Shown: positions 34,337-43,983 of the stretch, in pieces
Layout of the letters: each line of letters starts with the position of its first letter
Position numbering within the stretch: position 1 is the first letter of the stretch
From: a virus
IMG/VR virus record: IMGVR_UViG_3300002461_000235
Coordinates: 1-58,169 of that record
DNA: 58,169 nt
Direction: 5' to 3' (one strand)
Notes under the pieces: model-generated
What the model was told of the DNA's origin: nothing
Database searches by the model: none
Seen by the model: only the letters and a program-made list of their open reading frames with translations
Position numbers and translations under genes: made by a program

Positions 34337-36268
34337 TTAAAAGAACTCAATCTGCTTAGGCTTAGGACTATATCCAATATCTTCTAATATTTCTTTAGCA
34401 TATCGAATGTACCAGCTATAATCTATATCATCAGGGAAGCTCTCTGGCAGCTCCATACAGGGCTTTGCTCCATCAGTGTCAGCTACCTTATTTCCTGTCT
34501 GTACCGTCTGTATGCAACCTAATTCACCCTTGGCGTAGTACCAGCGAATTACCTTCCCCAAATATTCCCTGTTTTTGTGGGCACCGGGAGCCTTGGCTTG
34601 CCGCACTGCAATAAATCTTGTGAAATCAGAACAACCTTTAATTGTTTCTTCAATTGGTACGCCATGAGCCAATAGCTTCTCTACAGCATCAGAGCAAATT
34701 AGAACAAATGGATTGGTATCAAGTTTGGTTCCTGACTGAGAGCCTACTTCCGAATATGGACCTTTCTTCTTAATTCCTTTATCAAGCTTTACAGCAAAAT
34801 AAGCGTTAACATCTCTAGCGTAGTAAGCTGAGTATTCGGTTTCCTCAGTATCAAATCTGGTTTGCTGCTCCCAAGCTTTAATAATGGCATCTAGCTTTTC
34901 TTGATCAACTCTATCGTGATAAATAACAATGCCGTCTGTATTAGCCGATACTACATCAAATCCAGCAGTAACCAGCATTTCTATTAGCATTAAAATACTA
35001 AGTTGACAAGTCAAATTCATTTGCATTGTTAAATGTGGCGAGCGCAACTTAGACCACAGATCGCTGAATTTTCCAGATGTACCATTAAGGAAAATCTTTA
35101 ATCCTTTATCCTTAGTGAAGTTCTTAGCTCGCTTTGCTTCTACACGGCTATCTTTAAATCCCCTGAATACAGTTAGGAAGTTTTCTCCAGCTCCAATAGG
35201 GCACAAGCCTAAATTTAAAATGCAGTTTGGATAGAAGCTGGTAACATCTCTATCAGTGAGCTTCTTAGTCTCAGTAGCCTTATATGCTACATTCTTTTCT
35301 TTAGAGTGCAACCCTCCAATACCAAAGCTGTATTCCATATTGGCTATTCTAATGGTCGCATCTACTCCTTCAGGAGTATCTAGATAACCATTAGGACCAA
35401 TCATGAATTTAGCTTTTTTACAAACCTCCAGAAAGTTTTGCAATACTGGTGTAGTAAAATTTAAAAAGCTTGGAGCTTGATAGTAGTACGGTCCTGATTT
35501 GATATCAGGACGCTCAATCTGCTTTCCATTTAAGCGGCTGATTTCTTTTGATAGCACAATCTCAGCCATTTGAGCATCAGACTTGCTTCTTAAATCTTCC
35601 CGATATTCATTTCCTATGACTTCGCGCAACTCAATGCGCTCTTTCATAAAGTCAAAAAGCTCCTCAGTAATGTCTAGCTGATTACAGTTAAACTTTTTAA
35701 TTTCTCCAATTTCAAATTCAGTTAAATCAGCGTTAATATCAAATGGCTGATCCTGAATAGACCTAGTGTGAAGCCTAGCGCCATAAAGTCTGAGACTTCC
35801 TTTGAGCGGTGCAACCTCAATTAAATCTATATGATTGGTTTTAAAAACTTGAAAACCATAGTTACGCTTTAGTTCCCATTCGCGCATTCCATTAACGATT
35901 AAGTCATTAGTGGCGTCTTTTAAAAGGTTTGCATCTTGATAATGATATGCCAGCCACAATATAGGCAAATCAAAGCTAAGAGAATTAAATCCAACTGTCC
36001 GATAGCTGTGCATTATCCAAGACAAAAATTGAGGATTGAAGCTCCTGCCTTCTCCACACTCCAGCTCAACAAACTTTCCTGTAGTGTGGAGCTTAAATGT
36101 GATCAGGAAATAATTTGGATATACTTCAGCGTTGAGGAAAAGTGTTCCTCCAGCATTAGCTGTTAACTCAGCATCAGTCAGGTATTCACGCTGAATGAAT
36201 GGACGCGGCTTGTAAGGTAGCAGCTCTGTGCGCTTATCTAGGACTATTAAACCTTCATCGTTTAACAT
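34337..36268 (-). CDS. DNA polymerase with family-B-type motifs and an N-terminal exonuclease-like region
   Basis: RDVTSFYPNCIL (DxxSLYPS-like), KIFLNGTSGKF (KxxxNSxYG-like), SANTDGIVI (DTDS-like), GFNSLSFDLPIL (ExoII-like). Confidence 0.75.
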   Translation of the reverse strand: MLNDEGLIVLDKRTELLPYKPRPFIQREYLTDAELTANAGGTLFLNAEVYPNYFLITFKLHTTGKFVELECGEGRSFNPQFLSWIMHSYRTVGFNSLSFDLPILWLAYHYQDANLLKDATNDLIVNGMREWELKRNYGFQVFKTNHIDLIEVAPLKGSLRLYGARLHTRSIQDQPFDINADLTEFEIGEIKKFNCNQLDITEELFDFMKERIELREVIGNEYREDLRSKSDAQMAEIVLSKEISRLNGKQIERPDIKSGPYYYQAPSFLNFTTPVLQNFLEVCKKAKFMIGPNGYLDTPEGVDATIRIANMEYSFGIGGLHSKEKNVAYKATETKKLTDRDVTSFYPNCILNLGLCPIGAGENFLTVFRGFKDSRVEAKRAKNFTKDKGLKIFLNGTSGKFSDLWSKLRSPHLTMQMNLTCQLSILMLIEMLVTAGFDVVSANTDGIVIYHDRVDQEKLDAIIKAWEQQTRFDTEETEYSAYYARDVNAYFAVKLDKGIKKKGPYSEVGSQSGTKLDTNPFVLICSDAVEKLLAHGVPIEETIKGCSDFTRFIAVRQAKAPGAHKNREYLGKVIRWYYAKGELGCIQTVQTGNKVADTDGAKPCMELPESFPDDIDYSWYIRYAKEILEDIGYSPKPKQIEFF

Positions 36269-36422: not shown

Positions 36423-36577
36423 TAACCTACCTTAGTTTTAATTCTACGCTCAAAGAAAATATAGCCATTATACATAGCTGCCACATACCAGCCAACAGCC
36501 CCATACTCTTTTAGAATTTCCATATGCTCAGCTAAAGTAGCTGGGATAGGGACGTTTAAATATTCATAGATTATCAT
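36422..36577 (-). CDS. possible 51-aa protein
   Basis: Own translation MIIYEYLNVPIPATLAEHMEILKEYG...; ATGA overlap with the upstream gene. Confidence 0.4.
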   Translation of the reverse strand: MIIYEYLNVPIPATLAEHMEILKEYGAVGWYVAAMYNGYIFFERRIKTKVG

Positions 36578-37587
36578 GTTCTCTGCCTTCCTGAAATGAC
36601 ACCCCTGCTTACATCACCTTGAAAGACTAAGCAATAGGTACTGTCTGCAATTCCGCTAGCCATCCAATCTATTTTTTTTACAAACGGTTTAATAATTTTT
36701 AACTGTTTAATAGGATAGACAAAGCCTTTTGGAATACCAGCACATTCATAACTAGCTCCTACTCCTTCATCAGCATGAGAGCGCAATAAATTTAATTCTG
36801 AATAAACATTACCATCTTCTGAGAATGGCTCAATGGCATCTAAAGCTTTAAAGAAGCCAGTGTCTATAGTCCATAGATTAGCCTCACGATTTAAAATACT
36901 AGATACATCAGGCCATTCATCATTGTAGAGCTGAGTTCTAAGCCAGCATCCATCATCAAAATAAAATGTAGCTGAGCAATTACTGTAGCCAAATCCAGTT
37001 AAATTCTTTTTCTGCTTAGCCAAAGCTGCAACAAACTGCTTAGGTAATGGCACATTCGGAGGAAGGTCTAAACCATGCCAAAACTCCATAATCATAACGC
37101 GATTTGTAGATATGACAGAAGGCCCATTCATGAGGACAGACGCGGTTAAAATGTGTTGTGCATTCTCGCTAGCCAAAACCCCTACAGCCTCTACAGCCTC
37201 TTTAAAAGCGTTTGTAATGCCTACAATCTGAGGATCAGGAAGCGCGGTCTGCATCAGAGCCGGATCAAGGCAAGGTACTACAGCTTTAAATTTACCTGAT
37301 TTGATCGAAAGCCTACCGTTATCTAATTGCGTGAGTGAGAAACTATCGTCACATTTTGACAAGGCTTCAGCCAGCAGCATAGTGTGGGCATAGCAGGTAA
37401 TGTCCTCAGAGATAGGACTACCAGCAGCGACAATGCCATTAAAAGCGATAGCCCAATTATTCCGCAATCCGATATGCGTTTCATAAGGCGCTCCTAACTT
37501 CTCACTCACTACACTACAAAATTCTATCGCAGTCAAAAGACTGGATTTATTTGGTTCTGATTTGGAGCCGGGAGATTTACGAGGCAT
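36574..37587 (-). CDS. putative sliding-clamp (DnaN-like) protein
   Basis: Size about 340 aa, position next to the polymerase, and a repetitive beta-strand pattern such as LSIKSGKFKAVVPCLDP; weak. Confidence 0.35.
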   Translation of the reverse strand: MPRKSPGSKSEPNKSSLLTAIEFCSVVSEKLGAPYETHIGLRNNWAIAFNGIVAAGSPISEDITCYAHTMLLAEALSKCDDSFSLTQLDNGRLSIKSGKFKAVVPCLDPALMQTALPDPQIVGITNAFKEAVEAVGVLASENAQHILTASVLMNGPSVISTNRVMIMEFWHGLDLPPNVPLPKQFVAALAKQKKNLTGFGYSNCSATFYFDDGCWLRTQLYNDEWPDVSSILNREANLWTIDTGFFKALDAIEPFSEDGNVYSELNLLRSHADEGVGASYECAGIPKGFVYPIKQLKIIKPFVKKIDWMASGIADSTYCLVFQGDVSRGVISGRQRT

Positions 37588-37596
37588 ACATTAATC

Positions 37597-37854
37597 CTAA
37601 AACGGTATATCCATATCTGGATTATCACTCTCTTTAAACTTCTCACAGCCAAAAACTATAATCCTAGCTGGTGGTCTGACATTAAACATTTTGCAGCTCT
37701 CAGTATCAGTTTCAAAATGTTCACATACTAAACAGCTTTCAAACATCATATTTTTAGGAGTGACTTCTTTTAAAACTTCCATAACTGAAGCAAAGAGCTT
37801 GCCTTGTAGCTCATACTTGCCTATTAGACGGAATTTTAATTTAGTGTCGCTCAT
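37597..37854 (-). CDS. Cys-rich 85-aa protein ending in an SSB-like acidic tip DMDIPF
   Basis: C-terminus verified codon by codon (E S D N P D M D I P F stop); contains CLVCEH...C...C. Confidence 0.6.
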   Translation of the reverse strand: MSDTKLKFRLIGKYELQGKLFASVMEVLKEVTPKNMMFESCLVCEHFETDTESCKMFNVRPPARIIVFGCEKFKESDNPDMDIPF

Positions 37855-38033
37855 GATGTTATTGCATAACTGATAATTCTATCTTGTTCGCGCAAAATTG
37901 GATATTTACATCTTTGTTTCCAACAAAGCCAATCCAAAATATGCCAATAGTAAGAAGGGTTTTCTTTTCTCCAGCACATTTCTCCAGTATCTATTATCAA
38001 TTCTAATTCTCTAGTTTGTTCTAAAGACATCAA
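37851..38033 (-). CDS. hypothetical protein
   Basis: ORF-track ORF, 4-nt overlaps. Confidence 0.5.
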   Translation of the reverse strand: MMSLEQTRELELIIDTGEMCWRKENPSYYWHILDWLCWKQRCKYPILREQDRIISYAITS

Positions 38034-39622
38034 AACTCAGCTCCCAATATCTCCGGATGTAACTTATTAGTATGCACTCGAATAAATCTAGGACAGCGCA
38101 ACTCACTAATTTTTAAAAGTGCTGCATCTACTGTTGCTGGTGGTTCTTCTCTATGCCGTCTCCTCCACCAATCTCTAGCAATTTTACCAGCCATGCCTGA
38201 GTGCTGCAAGCAAATATATTCGCTGTAAGGTTCTCTGCCTAAAACTAGATAGGTAGCTTTAATTGTTGGCGGCTTGCCTAATTTGCCGGGATGTTTTTGG
38301 TAGACTGCTCCAGTCACATTAAACGTTTCTACTATTGGTGTCTGCTCAACAGCAGCAGCTCGAATTAATTCATCTGTGCCAGACTTTGAAACTAATTTGA
38401 CTTGAAAGCTAAATTCAGCGCCACACTGAATACAAAATCTGACCCTAGGGTGATTGTAACAGCCGCACTCCTCGCAGATTTTAATAGGTAGCTCTCCTCC
38501 ACTTTCACCTTTCTTATTTGGTATCCTAGGATCATTGATAGGACCAAGCCTAGGAGTATTGCGAGCGAAGTCCAAGACAAGGCAATCTTTTTTAGCTGGC
38601 CTAGTGCCTCTCCCAAGCATCTGTACCCATAGAGGAACGCTCAAGGTTGGTCGCAGCATTCCAATCAAATCTATTTCTGGATGGTTGAAGCCTGTTGTAA
38701 GCTTTCCGTAATTAACAATAGCTTTGAGTTTATTTGATTTAAACGCTCTGATAGCTGCATCATTATATTCTGAAGGACGCTTAGAATGAACAGGGGCACA
38801 ATCAACACCAAAGGCTCCCAACTGCTCAGCGATATGCTCAGCATGCTCAATGCCGCTAGCAAAAATAAGCCACGATTTACGATTAGCTCCAGCATGACAC
38901 AACTCCTGTAGCGCTTTAAATGTTATCTCTGCTTTGTCTACTGCTCCTTGTAACTGAGTAGCAACAAATTCACCTTTTTGAATGCTCACATCAGATACAT
39001 CAAGCTCAGTTTTGGTACGCAACGGAATGAGAGGAGCCATATAGCCAGCAGCTAGCAGCTCGTTAAAGCCTTCTAAGTCTGTCTTGTCATAAACTACATC
39101 AGTGAACAATCCATTTTCTGTGATCATGCCCATACCCATACGATACAGGGTAGCTGACATGCCGATGATTTTTAAATTCGGATTGATCAGTTTTAAAAAT
39201 GCAAACAAGGTTTGGTATTGGCTGCTCTCTTCAGCAGAAACCAAATGAGCTTCATCTACAAACGCAATATCACGATGACCAAACCAGTCAGGATGTTTGA
39301 TCATTGACTGCACTCCACCAAAAATAATTGGCTGAGCCGTCTGCTTCAGCTTTAAACCACTCGAATAAATACCAAGAGGGGCTTCAGGCCAAAGTTTTAA
39401 AAGTTCATCTGCATTTTGTTGGATCAGCTCTTTAACGTGAGTGATCATGAGGAAACGCTGATTAGGCCAGCGCTTCATGATACCTTGAATGAATGCAGCA
39501 GGGAGGACAGATTTTCCAGTGCCAGTAGGAAGCCCGATTAAGGGATTGCCGGTTTCGTGAGTGAGGAAATAATTATAGAGAGCGTCTAGCGCTTCCTGCT
39601 GGTAGTAGCGAAGTTGGATCAT
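38030..39622 (-). CDS. SF2 DEAH-box DNA helicase with a C-terminal zinc ribbon
   Basis: GLPTGTGKS, FVDEAH, MSAT, QMLGRGTR, CEECG...CIQCG. Confidence 0.85.
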   Translation of the reverse strand: MIQLRYYQQEALDALYNYFLTHETGNPLIGLPTGTGKSVLPAAFIQGIMKRWPNQRFLMITHVKELIQQNADELLKLWPEAPLGIYSSGLKLKQTAQPIIFGGVQSMIKHPDWFGHRDIAFVDEAHLVSAEESSQYQTLFAFLKLINPNLKIIGMSATLYRMGMGMITENGLFTDVVYDKTDLEGFNELLAAGYMAPLIPLRTKTELDVSDVSIQKGEFVATQLQGAVDKAEITFKALQELCHAGANRKSWLIFASGIEHAEHIAEQLGAFGVDCAPVHSKRPSEYNDAAIRAFKSNKLKAIVNYGKLTTGFNHPEIDLIGMLRPTLSVPLWVQMLGRGTRPAKKDCLVLDFARNTPRLGPINDPRIPNKKGESGGELPIKICEECGCYNHPRVRFCIQCGAEFSFQVKLVSKSGTDELIRAAAVEQTPIVETFNVTGAVYQKHPGKLGKPPTIKATYLVLGREPYSEYICLQHSGMAGKIARDWWRRRHREEPPATVDAALLKISELRCPRFIRVHTNKLHPEILGAEF

Positions 39623-39624
39623 TT

Positions 39625-39900
39625 TTAAAATTTTACATTCTTATCGGCATGATGCTGATCTAGCTTTTCAATTGCCTGCTGTAGAATTTCGCGCAATTTG
39701 CCGCGAGACCAAAAAGTTACAGCCGCGCTATCATCGTCTCCTTCGCGATGTATAAATGGACCTTGAACATTTTCACCACTAGGTAGAGTTGTGGGCAAAT
39801 AAAGATAGAAACGACAAGCCTCGAATACATTACCATCAATTTCTTTTTCAATAATTTCAATTCGATTGGTCATTTCTTCAGCATAGATATTTACTCGCAT
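39625..39900 (-). CDS. hypothetical protein
   Basis: ORF-track ORF. Confidence 0.55.
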   Translation of the reverse strand: MRVNIYAEEMTNRIEIIEKEIDGNVFEACRFYLYLPTTLPSGENVQGPFIHREGDDDSAAVTFWSRGKLREILQQAIEKLDQHHADKNVKF

Positions 39901-39943: not shown

Positions 39944-40807
39944 CTAAATTGGTAACCATTGGTCACATCCTTTTTTAATCCAGTCACTAGGAATATTTGA
40001 ATTATGAAGTCCGCAATGCCATTGCGCGGCCTCTACTGGCGTAGCGTTGCGGCATGAACGGCAATTCTTTTCAGGCTGTACTCCTTTGTGGCAGATGTCA
40101 GTTAAATGACACCACTTACATTCATACGCAGATGGATTTTCAGATATCCTAGGAGGAGGCTCTTTAGAAAATATAATCTGCTCAGCCTTCTTTTCTAATT
40201 GCGCTCCATAATTCCAATCAAGCTCAATAACTTTAAAAGTTATATGACTGTCATTCTTATTCTCAATCATGTAAATACAGTATTTAATACCAGTCTTATA
40301 GCCATACTGACATTCTTGTGCCCAATGTTGAGGCTTAGATTTTTGCAAAGTCTCTTTACTTACTTTCTCGTATCCTGATCCAGTGTTATTAGTCTTAAAG
40401 CTGAGAGAAAGTATAATATCTCCAATAATTTCATATCTAGCTGGTGGAATGCACTTACCATCTAGCGAGCCGCCATAATGGCCCCAAGCTCCAGAGATAC
40501 GGAACTGTTTTCCATCTTCATCAAATTCTTTAACCTCAAAACCAATACCGCGAAGATAAGTCACAAATCTAGGCTCAGCAGAATGACCTACATTAAATAG
40601 ACGCATCATACGACCATCAAAATTTTCCTGTTTAACCCAACGGAATTGATACCAGAGCTTACGCCAGCAAGTATCACCTAGCGTTGAGGCTCCTAGATGA
40701 TTTCTATGACCTTGCTCATAGTAGCTAGCGCAGAATGCATCAATGTCAGCATCTAGCAATTCTTCTAGCTTTTCACGGTCTGAGGCTTTGGATAGATCAA
40801 GCATCAA
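39944..40807 (-). CDS. Cas4/RecB-like PD-(D/E)XK nuclease with Cys clusters
   Basis: N-terminal Cys (GDTCWRKLWY), GSLDG, QxxxY-like QECQYGY, C-terminal CKWCHLTDIC plus extra Cys. The expected ExK position reads SFK, so activity is uncertain. Confidence 0.55.
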   Translation of the reverse strand: MMLDLSKASDREKLEELLDADIDAFCASYYEQGHRNHLGASTLGDTCWRKLWYQFRWVKQENFDGRMMRLFNVGHSAEPRFVTYLRGIGFEVKEFDEDGKQFRISGAWGHYGGSLDGKCIPPARYEIIGDIILSLSFKTNNTGSGYEKVSKETLQKSKPQHWAQECQYGYKTGIKYCIYMIENKNDSHITFKVIELDWNYGAQLEKKAEQIIFSKEPPPRISENPSAYECKWCHLTDICHKGVQPEKNCRSCRNATPVEAAQWHCGLHNSNIPSDWIKKGCDQWLPI

Positions 40808-41083: not shown

Positions 41084-41758
41084 TTAGCGAGTTCCCCAAG
41101 GAGGAGCAGCGCCTCCAGCGGCGTTACCTCCCGGTTGCCAAGCTCCACCACCCTGAGGAGCTTGCTGCTGAGGCTGTTGCTGAGCGGGCTGCTGAGGCTG
41201 CTGATTAGGCTGACCCCAACCTCCTCCCGGCTGCTGTGTCATAGGCGCTGGCCCTGCCTGAGGCTGTTGTGGCTGACCTTGAGGCTGCTGTGCAAACCCT
41301 CCTCCGGCCTGTCCCTGCTGAGCCTGAGCAGGTTTGCTAGGATCATTGCCATTAATATCATAAACACGCTTCAATTCAGTATAACCCTTACCTTCAGGAT
41401 TAGTCGCAGGGTCCTCTCCCTTTTGATAGCCAACATCCATCAAGCCTTTACCGCCGCGCAATGCAGCACATTCGTTTTGACCATCAATATTATAGATACC
41501 AACAGCGCGGCAAAGTGCTGAGAGCTGCTGATAAGCAATTTCAACAGCTTTAGGGGAAGCATTGTTGATATTGTAGCGATGGGTGACAGCACCCTGAGGA
41601 GAAGTAAGCTCTACTACCAGCATTCCACCAGTCTTGTCTTTGGTTTCGACAATGGAAGTGCTAGTAATAGTAAACGGAATTTTAAGTGCTGGAGGATGGC
41701 CCTCCATACCCTGCTTAGGTTCATACTGATTTGCATTGAAACTCCATTGGACCTGCAT
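41084..41758 (-). CDS. single-stranded DNA-binding protein, DUF669-like, with a long Q/P/G-rich tail
   Basis: N-terminal pattern resembles the DUF669 phage SSB family. The tail lacks an acidic tip and ends PPWGTR. Confidence 0.55.
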   Translation of the reverse strand: MQVQWSFNANQYEPKQGMEGHPPALKIPFTITSTSIVETKDKTGGMLVVELTSPQGAVTHRYNINNASPKAVEIAYQQLSALCRAVGIYNIDGQNECAALRGGKGLMDVGYQKGEDPATNPEGKGYTELKRVYDINGNDPSKPAQAQQGQAGGGFAQQPQGQPQQPQAGPAPMTQQPGGGWGQPNQQPQQPAQQQPQQQAPQGGGAWQPGGNAAGGAAPPWGTR

Positions 41759-41773
41759 AATTTTGATATCCTT

Positions 41774-42337
41774 TTAAGTTAAGTTGTTCCATCTTGTATT
41801 TGCAGCTTTAGACATTTTAGCTCTATTTACATCCTTAGCTTCTCCATTAAATCTAGCCTTCATTGCTTTTGATATCTTAGCTTTAGTTTCATCAGAAGAA
41901 GCTTTTCTATTCTTAGGGTAGTTAGTTTTTCTTCCAGTCTGAATTAGACTTATTTTGCTTTTGGTTTCTTGTGTGTGTTTTCTTCCTAATTGCTTAATCC
42001 TCATTTTTTCTATAGTAGCTTCAGAATGCTTTCTGCCTGTCATTCCGCTACCAACTTCACATTTATTGTAGCCAAATTCTTCTTCAGTAGCTCTATGCTT
42101 GGCTATATAATATGCTTCTGTTTCGTACAATTTTTGAACGTCTACCAGCTCAATTATAATGAAGTCAAAAGCCTCAGCTCCATATAAATTGTAAGCTCGC
42201 TGAAGATGTTCATTATGATGAATATTTTTGGTAAGTCTAGTAAAATGTTCTGATCTACGCTTTAAAAGATAAACCGCGCTACCGATATATAATTTTAAAC
42301 TTATTTTATTAAGAATAAAATATATACCGGAGCGCAT
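41774..42337 (-). CDS. free-standing GIY-YIG homing endonuclease (paralog of 18394-18930)
   Basis: GIYFILN...LYIGSA...R..H motifs; NUMOD3-like repeats GRKHSEATIEKM and GRKHTQETKSKI. Confidence 0.85.
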   Translation of the reverse strand: MRSGIYFILNKISLKLYIGSAVYLLKRRSEHFTRLTKNIHHNEHLQRAYNLYGAEAFDFIIIELVDVQKLYETEAYYIAKHRATEEEFGYNKCEVGSGMTGRKHSEATIEKMRIKQLGRKHTQETKSKISLIQTGRKTNYPKNRKASSDETKAKISKAMKARFNGEAKDVNRAKMSKAANTRWNNLT

Positions 42338-43263: not shown

Positions 43264-43983
43264 TTAATAATTGATCAGTGGTGGAGCTGACATTGCTTTT
43301 TCAATAAGTGCTCCAAAGTTAGGAGGCTCAAAGTCAGCTAGGTTGCCAGTCCTGTTGCGAGCCATGACATTCATATTTCCATTGCATTGAAAAGCTAGAT
43401 GTTCTCCCGGCATACCGGGAATAGCTTGTGTCTTAGCTAGCCTAATAATGAAATCATATAAATGAGGAACGTCAACAGGTAAAACTTTTCCGGGAAAGTA
43501 TGGTCTACGCAACGATTGATAATCTACGTCAGCTATTTCCTCCTTACAAATTAAATAAACATGCTTATAGCGAGTGTAAAACAATGTTCGCAAATGCTCC
43601 ATTGTGTTTCTCGCCATATCGCCATAAGCAGCTTGCCCATGAACCTTATTACCAGCTTTGCTGGTGCCTGTCAGAGCAGCATTTAAATAAATGTCTGCCA
43701 TCTGAGAGCCGCTATCAATTCCTAACGTATCAAAATTTTTGGTTTCAGTTGAATTAAAAAACCATTTAAAAAATTCGTCCACTCGCTGCGAAGTGTAAGC
43801 TTCATATGTGGGAATGGTTGAGCCTCGCATAGATAGCAAACCTGCTTCAGTAGCAAGCAATACTGGCCTAGGAGCGCTGTTCAAAATTGGGGTTTTTCCA
43901 GTACCAGCAGGCCCATATACAATAGCTTTGATACCAAAGTTATTAGCATGGTCGCCAGCAGCTTTTAAATCGCGAATATCCAT
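43264..43983 (-). CDS. RecA-fold AAA ATPase (Sak4-like recombination protein)
   Basis: Walker A VYGPAGTGKT; size and context match phage Sak4-type modules. Confidence 0.65.
   Translation of the reverse strand: MDIRDLKAAGDHANNFGIKAIVYGPAGTGKTPILNSAPRPVLLATEAGLLSMRGSTIPTYEAYTSQRVDEFFKWFFNSTETKNFDTLGIDSGSQMADIYLNAALTGTSKAGNKVHGQAAYGDMARNTMEHLRTLFYTRYKHVYLICKEEIADVDYQSLRRPYFPGKVLPVDVPHLYDFIIRLAKTQAIPGMPGEHLAFQCNGNMNVMARNRTGNLADFEPPNFGALIEKAMSAPPLINY

Follow-up and report, generated by a model that had tools for sequence, protein, structure and literature searches.

A small viral protein ending in a copy of the C-terminal tip of bacterial SSB was identified in a phage replication-recombination module, and in related phages the same peptide is found at the end of the helicase or of the sliding clamp, suggesting that the phage DNA-copying machinery uses it as a docking tag that can move from one protein to another. 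Our leading, though still tentative, interpretation is that the small protein (hereafter, the tip protein) serves this module as a trans-acting docking adaptor, with SSB-interacting proteins of the host as its most likely clients. The window, i.e., the whole stretch of DNA that was analyzed, is a complete virus record of 58,169 bp with direct terminal repeats and about 40% G+C; the genes of the replication-recombination module are all encoded on its minus strand (Table 1).

Table 1. Features of the replication-recombination module and of the tip protein in the window, from high to low coordinates
Feature	Coordinates	Strand	Matches and remarks
Sak4-like annealase (AAA_24)	43264..43983	-	Pfam AAA_24 1.3e-17; PHROG 124 2.5e-37
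GIY-YIG/NUMOD3 homing endonuclease	41774..42337	-	Upstream of SSB gene
DUF669-like SSB	41084..41758	-	PHROG 6015 E 2.6e-36; long Q/P/G tail, ends P-P-W-G-T-R
Cas4-domain exonuclease	39944..40807	-	PHROG 1990 E 8.1e-94
91-aa ORF	39625..39900	-	
RadD-like SF2 helicase with zinc ribbon	38030..39622	-	Pfam ResIII, Helicase_C
60-codon ORF between helicase and tip-protein gene	37851..38033	-	No family matches
Tip-protein gene	37597..37854	-	PHROG 23504; 85 codons plus TAG stop
N-terminal helix (predicted), residues 10-29	37768..37827	-	AF2 secondary structure
Four-Cys core, residues 40-73	37636..37737	-	C41, C44, C54, C70 and R-P-P-A-R-I-I motif
Variable linker and tip D-M-D-I-P-F, residues 76-85	37600..37629	-	TAG at 37597-37599
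DnaN-like sliding clamp (processivity factor)	36574..37587	-	PHROG 947 E 6.6e-50
DNA polymerase	34337..36268	-	PHROG 1252 E 3.5e-169; ends K-Q-I-E-F-F

The initial annotation had described a Cys-rich 85-aa protein with an SSB-type tip, encoded between a clamp-like gene and an SF2 helicase gene. The ORF is real; its minus-strand translation ends in ...KESDNPDMDIPF*, which reads K-E-S-D-N-P-D-M-D-I-P-F, and the TAG stop directly follows the terminal Phe, placing the tip at the extreme C-terminus with a free carboxylate. The acidic residues ahead of I-P-F are D80 and D82. While the length of 85 aa was correct, "Cys-rich" was an overstatement, as the protein has exactly four cysteines, all of them invariant. 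The gene does lie between those encoding the helicase and the clamp, with a 60-codon ORF also intervening; the helicase gene is joined to this ORF through TGATG, the ORF to the tip-protein gene through ATGA, and 9 nt then precede the ATG of the clamp gene. Start/stop codon overlap is also frequent in the helicase-tip-clamp run of related phages, and the 60-codon ORF is missing in relatives whose tip-protein gene directly overlaps the helicase stop.

The window has 505 stop-to-stop ORFs with 40 aa or more, and of these the tip protein alone has an [IVLMP]-P-[FY] end. It resembles bacterial SSB in having acidic residues followed by I/V-P-F at a free carboxyl end, a flexible tail and strong conservation of this end. 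By contrast, its carrier is not an SSB but an 85-aa, four-Cys protein predicted to bind metal; no OB fold was found in it (there is no Pfam match, and the model consists of a helix and a Cys-knot), and the canonical SSB family, PF00436, had no match anywhere in the phage genome.

The initial annotation had proposed comparing the C-terminal end among homologs, and in this comparison the tip proved to be the most conserved feature of a large viral family. The tip protein matches the PHROG 23504 profile (E 1.6e-12; residues 23-85 on profile positions 17-73 of 73), and an exhaustive profile-free search placed at least 374 representative clusters in the family at E values up to 0.001. All 32 close homologs (54-91% identity, BLASTP) end in D/E-[IV]-P-F and share the four Cys. 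An [IVLMP]P[FY] end was found in 133 of the 149 representatives listed, each from a separate 50%-identity cluster, with IPF in 99, VPF in 22, IPY in 4, LPF in 3, PPF in 3 and MPF in 2. Invariant throughout an alignment of 132 sequences are the four Cys, P61, P62 and P84; position 85 is F in 128 and Y in 4 sequences, I (105 sequences) and V (20) predominate at position 83, and positions 81-82 are mostly D or E. Linker columns 76-80 of this alignment are mostly gaps or variable, and its consensus has no conserved residues in the N-terminal helix, which is poorly conserved. Linkers range from 8 to 43 residues across the family, with tethers of mostly 8-15 residues, and the tip stays at the very end even in homologs with Pro-rich linkers of 30-43 aa. 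One long-linker homolog ends in F-D-D-F-D-D-D-I-P-F, in which the last seven residues are those of the E. coli SSB end (M-D-F-D-D-D-I-P-F, as quoted in PMC10238739). Judged from these alignments, the tip is not due to chance and is strongly selected.

The tip-protein family is viral. In a search of prokaryote genomes representing 185,579 species (one genome each), the single family match was on a 1.5-kb MAG contig, and cultured carriers include phages of Erwinia, Xanthomonas, Sphingomonas, Paracoccus, Rhizobium, Sulfitobacter, Variovorax and Pseudomonas. When the module was compared by Megablast with 50,697 phage records, nothing matched, and its relatives were found at the protein level only. 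Searches of the ESM Atlas and of BFVD returned only unnamed viral clusters and only uncharacterized phage proteins, respectively. No description of the small protein was found in literature searches on the SSB tip and its mimicry, on SSB-Ct in bacteriophages and on RadD/Sak4/Cas4. Some members of the family (P0116, with 166 aa, and also P0038 and P0110) have an extra N-terminal domain of about 50-100 residues before the four-Cys core and tip, suggesting that the core-plus-tip unit is itself modular.

An AF2 model of the tip protein built on the 132-sequence alignment had a mean pLDDT of 85.3, with values of 90-94 in the 10-residue blocks covering residues 41-70 (the Cys core) and values below 50 at residues 82-85, so that the tip is modeled as disordered; with only the 32 close homologs, the model was poor (pLDDT 55.5). 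As modeled, a disordered tip on a confident core is the pattern expected of a tethered docking peptide. The spacing C-x2-C-x9-C-x15-C is found in 111 of the 132 family members, and the four-Cys core is a predicted metal-binding domain, which would stay with the helicase.

Structural comparisons gave few leads on the nature of the metal. Foldseek against the PDB returned nothing below E 4 for the tip-protein model, and a profile search of PDB sequences returned one chance match (E 2.5). Of 48,161 PDB chains compared in an exhaustive VIA-align search, only eight reached a Z of 2 or more, all of them weakly (Z 2.1-3.7); four of these are HiPIPs and the other four come from glycyl-radical-enzyme complexes, being the small subunits in which HiPIP-like [4Fe-4S] modules reside. 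In a global alignment to 21 HiPIP domains by hhalign, the four Cys fell on the four cluster ligands, although weakly (P 0.011, probability 1.7-4%). Compared to HiPIP [4Fe-4S] modules (PF01355), the spacing between the second and third Cys is shorter in the tip protein, and no electron-transfer context is evident. PF03692, a CxxCxxCC family of putative zinc- or iron-chelating proteins, had weak matches in 33 of the 132 members (best E 1.6e-4) and no match in the tip protein of the window itself. Given the weak HiPIP resemblance of the model, the metal in the core could be Fe-S rather than zinc. An extended form of this idea, which we regard as improbable, is that the tip protein is a replisome subunit with a HiPIP-like [4Fe-4S] core instead of a zinc finger, that it brings in the host clamp loader (through chi) or some other partner of SSB by means of its SSB-type tail, and that a redox- or iron-sensitive cofactor could gate this docking; if true, it would represent a new class of viral Fe-S replisome adaptor.

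The order helicase, tip-protein gene, clamp, polymerase is kept in phages of Erwinia, Sphingomonas, Xanthomonas, Salmonella, Rhizobium, Vibrio and Microcystis, and the tip-protein gene directly follows a RadD-like helicase gene on the same strand in 47 of 50 IMG/VR loci. The Cas4-domain exonuclease is found in nearly all related gene clusters. Relatives of the clamp are annotated as DNA polymerase III beta; no clamp loader homolog was found in the complete phage genome, which has no PF13177 match and in which Sak4 alone gave a weak AAA match. The zinc ribbon of the helicase is seen in Pfam as a sub-threshold zf-ChsH2 match (17.7 bits vs. a cut-off of 23.2). Four small ORFs separate the homing endonuclease gene from the Sak4 gene, and in relatives HNH or other homing endonucleases are found at varying spots of the module.

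The claim of the initial annotation that the DUF669-like SSB lacks an acidic tip also held, as its tail ends in PPWGTR. This SSB is tied by phmmer to the DUF669 proteins of RHEph06 and PaMx25, which match PF05037. Behind their long P/Q/G tails, the DUF669 SSBs of these modules have conserved ends of their own (41087-41104, minus strand, in the window; also in loci L001-L025), for example P-P-W-G-x-R, A-P-W-G-Q-K/R, P-P-W-x-Q and P-A-W, and this conserved end may represent a second, phage-private C-terminal docking tip. The polymerase end (34340-34354, minus strand) is found as QIEFF, QLEFF, QLQFF, A-L-S-F-F or G-G-L-F in relatives, and K-Q-I-E-F-F looks like a beta-clamp-binding motif for the phage's own DnaN-like clamp. 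The SSB-type tip was itself considered as a clamp-binding motif and rejected on its sequence; D-M-D-I-P-F does not show the Gln/Leu pattern of the Q-L-[SD]-L-F type, and it is the Q-I-E-F-F of the polymerase that fits the beta-clamp-binding consensus instead.

Related modules from 14 cultured phages, reached by way of the helicase, and from IMG/VR loci, reached by way of the small protein, were annotated with the window's own proteins and the family HMM, yielding 62 related gene clusters with the helicase in view. Read as a pattern and not as an unbiased frequency, since loci L034-L083 were picked through the small protein, the tally places the tag on the small protein only in 39 of the 62 clusters, on the clamp only in 8 (e.g., Pseudomonas phage 73; five of the clamp-tag cases are near-identical contigs) and on an extended tail of the helicase only in 6 (PaMx25, VogelGryff, Moraxella Mcat18, Roseobacter CRP-902, RHph_X2_26 and L057). 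The tag is found on both the small protein and the clamp in 2 clusters and on both the small protein and Cas4 in 1. No tag was seen in the remaining 6 of the 62, indicating that the tag is not indispensable, and the DUF669 SSB was not found to carry the tag in any of the 62 gene clusters.

Where the small protein lacks the tip and the clamp is in view (L038 and L077-L082), the clamp always ends in D-D-[IV]-P-F, and in L057, where the small protein has no terminal tip, the helicase bears the tag instead. Loss of the tag from the small protein is thus compensated by a tagged clamp or helicase. The small protein of L038 (5355-5669) has an internal D-D-I-P-F followed by seven more residues, and the clamp in this locus ends in D-D-V-P-F. 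Gp56 of Burkholderia phage Bcep781 (L028:6478-6633), a 51-aa protein encoded just upstream of a distant RadD-like helicase, ends in I-D-E-F-E-P-F, which may be a divergent tip in a module that was otherwise scored as tag-less. In Mycobacterium and Gordonia phages with distant helicases, no tip-bearing ORFs were found in the region. Untagged RadD-like helicases, including that of the window (38030-38056, minus strand), share the end [YH]-P-E-[IV]-L-x-x-E-[FYW], in which an acidic residue is likewise followed by a terminal aromatic residue.

The small protein had initially been read as either an adaptor that recruits SSB-interacting factors or a decoy that competes for them. The first of these gained support in its general form, from the presence of the tip on the helicase or clamp of relatives, from the compensation described above and from the DUF669 SSB never being tagged in the 62 gene clusters; the second was weakened, as nothing would call for a decoy to be fused to subunits of the replisome. 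We propose that the tip protein is a small accessory subunit of the module formed by Sak4, the DUF669 SSB, the Cas4 nuclease, the RadD-like helicase, the DnaN-like clamp and the polymerase. Its four-Cys core would associate with the helicase, and its last residues, as a flexible copy of the bacterial SSB C-terminal tip, would provide the module in trans with the single SSB-type docking tag that it requires and that is missing from its own SSB. Through this tag, the helicase-clamp machinery would be plugged into proteins that recognize a free ...D-I-P-F carboxyl end. This proposal builds on what has been shown, namely the motif with its conservation and its modeled disorder, the order of the genes, and a tag that is portable and complementary between its carriers.

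Host SSB-interacting proteins would be the most likely clients of such an adaptor. A host client is favored by the residue-for-residue likeness of the tip to the bacterial hub peptide, by the presence of a beta-type clamp without a loader and by the finding that the clamp itself may bear the tag. Among clamp-loader subunits, chi is a classical SSB-Ct binder, and host chi would be the top candidate, given a phage that encodes a beta-type clamp and no loader of its own. Against this main reading, at least one phage of a cyanobacterium (Microcystis) also carries a tagged small protein, six of the 62 gene clusters show no tag, and RadD and HK620 Sak4, both of them tip-dependent, have homologs in the module.

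As E. coli RadD and HK620 Sak4 depend on an SSB-type tip, the client could be internal rather than a host protein. In this alternative, which we consider possible but rather unlikely, the tip has moved off the SSB and the tag is a ligand that activates the RadD-like helicase of the module and/or recruits Sak4. The upstream helicase is, by its match to E. coli RadD (PDB 6jde; E 1.8e-58, residues 3-390, into the zinc ribbon), a clear RadD homolog. E. coli RadD has been shown to bind SSB-Ct in a pocket of its first motor domain, formed by Arg21, Arg49, Arg145 and six hydrophobic residues, and this binding stimulates its ATPase (PMC10238739). In the helicase of the window, the hydrophobic positions and the Arg145 equivalent (K151) are kept, but the equivalents of Arg21 and Arg49 are not basic (L20 and N54, respectively) and are not conserved across the phage helicases, the Arg49 column being uncertain due to a 5-residue insertion in the alignment of RadD with the phage helicases. 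The helicase as a receptor through the RadD pocket is weakened by the loss of two of the three arginines. It was also rated a weaker receptor than Sak4 or a host protein because it can itself carry the tag, as it does in six lineages, which would be odd for a receptor. Compared to the E. coli RadD-SSB pair (PMC10238739; PDB 6jde and 7r7j), the phages similarly encode a RadD homolog immediately upstream of the tip-gene region, but in them the tip is donated by a dedicated small protein or by the tail of the helicase itself and not by SSB.

Sak4 fits every placement of the tag as a client, and the Sak4-like annealase of the window is a candidate internal client of the tip. In HK620, Sak4 depends for its function on the six C-terminal residues (N-D-Y-P-P-F) of the cognate SSB (PMC5928155). 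The module resembles this system and the "Healer" DUF669 and Sak4 module (PMC13687109) in having Sak4, a DUF669-type SSB, a Cas4 nuclease and a helicase; it differs in that the SSB of the window has a P-P-W-G-T-R end and the SSB-type tip is now found on another protein. The passages of these two papers that were searched contain no mention of the small protein. In a temperate Listeria phage encoding Sak4 and a short helicase, the DUF669 SSB itself ends in N-D-L-P-F, which is in keeping with an internal client and agrees with the remark that prophage DUF669 proteins carry D-D-D-I-P-F, whereas those of lytic phages have P/Q-rich tails (PMC13687109). On the other hand, the DUF669 SSB Gp63 already stimulates its Sak4-like partner Gp64, and the phage-encoded members of the Gp63 family have P/Q-rich C-termini, not the DDDIPF motif (PMC13687109).

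As a free small protein, the tip protein could alternatively titrate host SSB partners as a decoy and thereby halt host replication or repair, shield phage DNA ends or blunt defenses that use SSB-bound nucleases. The tip is of the same type as the host hub peptide, the protein is small and could be abundant, and phage proteins bearing the tip have been found to disturb the ssDNA metabolism of the host. One of these, the DRT10 trigger Bas52_0087, ends in F-D-D-D-I-P-F and has been suggested to contact SSB partners of the host such as ExoI (bioRxiv 10.64898/2026.04.29.721553); unlike the tip protein, which has no OB fold, it has a predicted SSB-like architecture with two OB folds. We nevertheless consider a decoy improbable. 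The tag swaps with helicase and clamp copies and is usually present once per module, which points to recruitment to a place rather than to titration, and a decoy would need neither a conserved metal-binding core nor a strict position after the helicase. Furthermore, versions of the protein without the tip have been retained.

In phage T7, the acidic, Phe-terminated C-terminal tails of gp2.5 (the SSB) and gp4 (the helicase-primase) bind the T7 DNA polymerase in a phage-specific manner, so that one kind of docking tail is present on several replisome subunits, including the helicase; in the window, by comparison, the tip copies the bacterial SSB hub peptide and is on a separate adaptor protein. 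A T7-like contact of the tail with the phage polymerase or clamp, with a convergent likeness to SSB, would suit this precedent and a tag found on the helicase, the clamp or a helicase-linked protein beside the polymerase gene, but is improbable given that, in many phage lineages, each residue of the motif agrees with the host type (D-D-I-P-F), that it is the polymerase end and not the tip that follows the beta-clamp-binding consensus, that the clamp itself can carry the tag, and that PaMx25 and VogelGryff, which have tagged helicases, do not have such a polymerase or clamp within 7 kb downstream.

In bacterial genome maintenance, the C-terminal tip of SSB serves as the central hub peptide, and it is found here detached from SSB and movable among a small predicted metal-binding protein, a RadD-like helicase and a sliding clamp, in a phage group that is very large and widespread. 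If the tip protein is a docking adaptor, it provides a handle on how phages that have a clamp, no loader and a tip-less SSB connect to host or internal partners. The swaps between carriers offer a natural experiment for learning where in the replisome the tag is needed, and the culturable phages of Escherichia, Salmonella, Pseudomonas, Erwinia and Xanthomonas would allow its deletion or relocation through changes of six codons. DUF669/Sak4 recombineering tools may require the tag for full activity, should it prove necessary. The present analysis contributes the identification of the helicase as a RadD homolog and the comparison of its pocket, the precedent from Sak4, the tally of complementarity, the lack of a clamp loader in a complete genome and the hint of a HiPIP-like metal site.

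In one IMG/VR lineage (L013:5257-7974 and L014:5257-7974), the RadD-like helicase has 905 aa, and its Walker A motif is split after P-T-G-C by a long insertion that looks like an intein.
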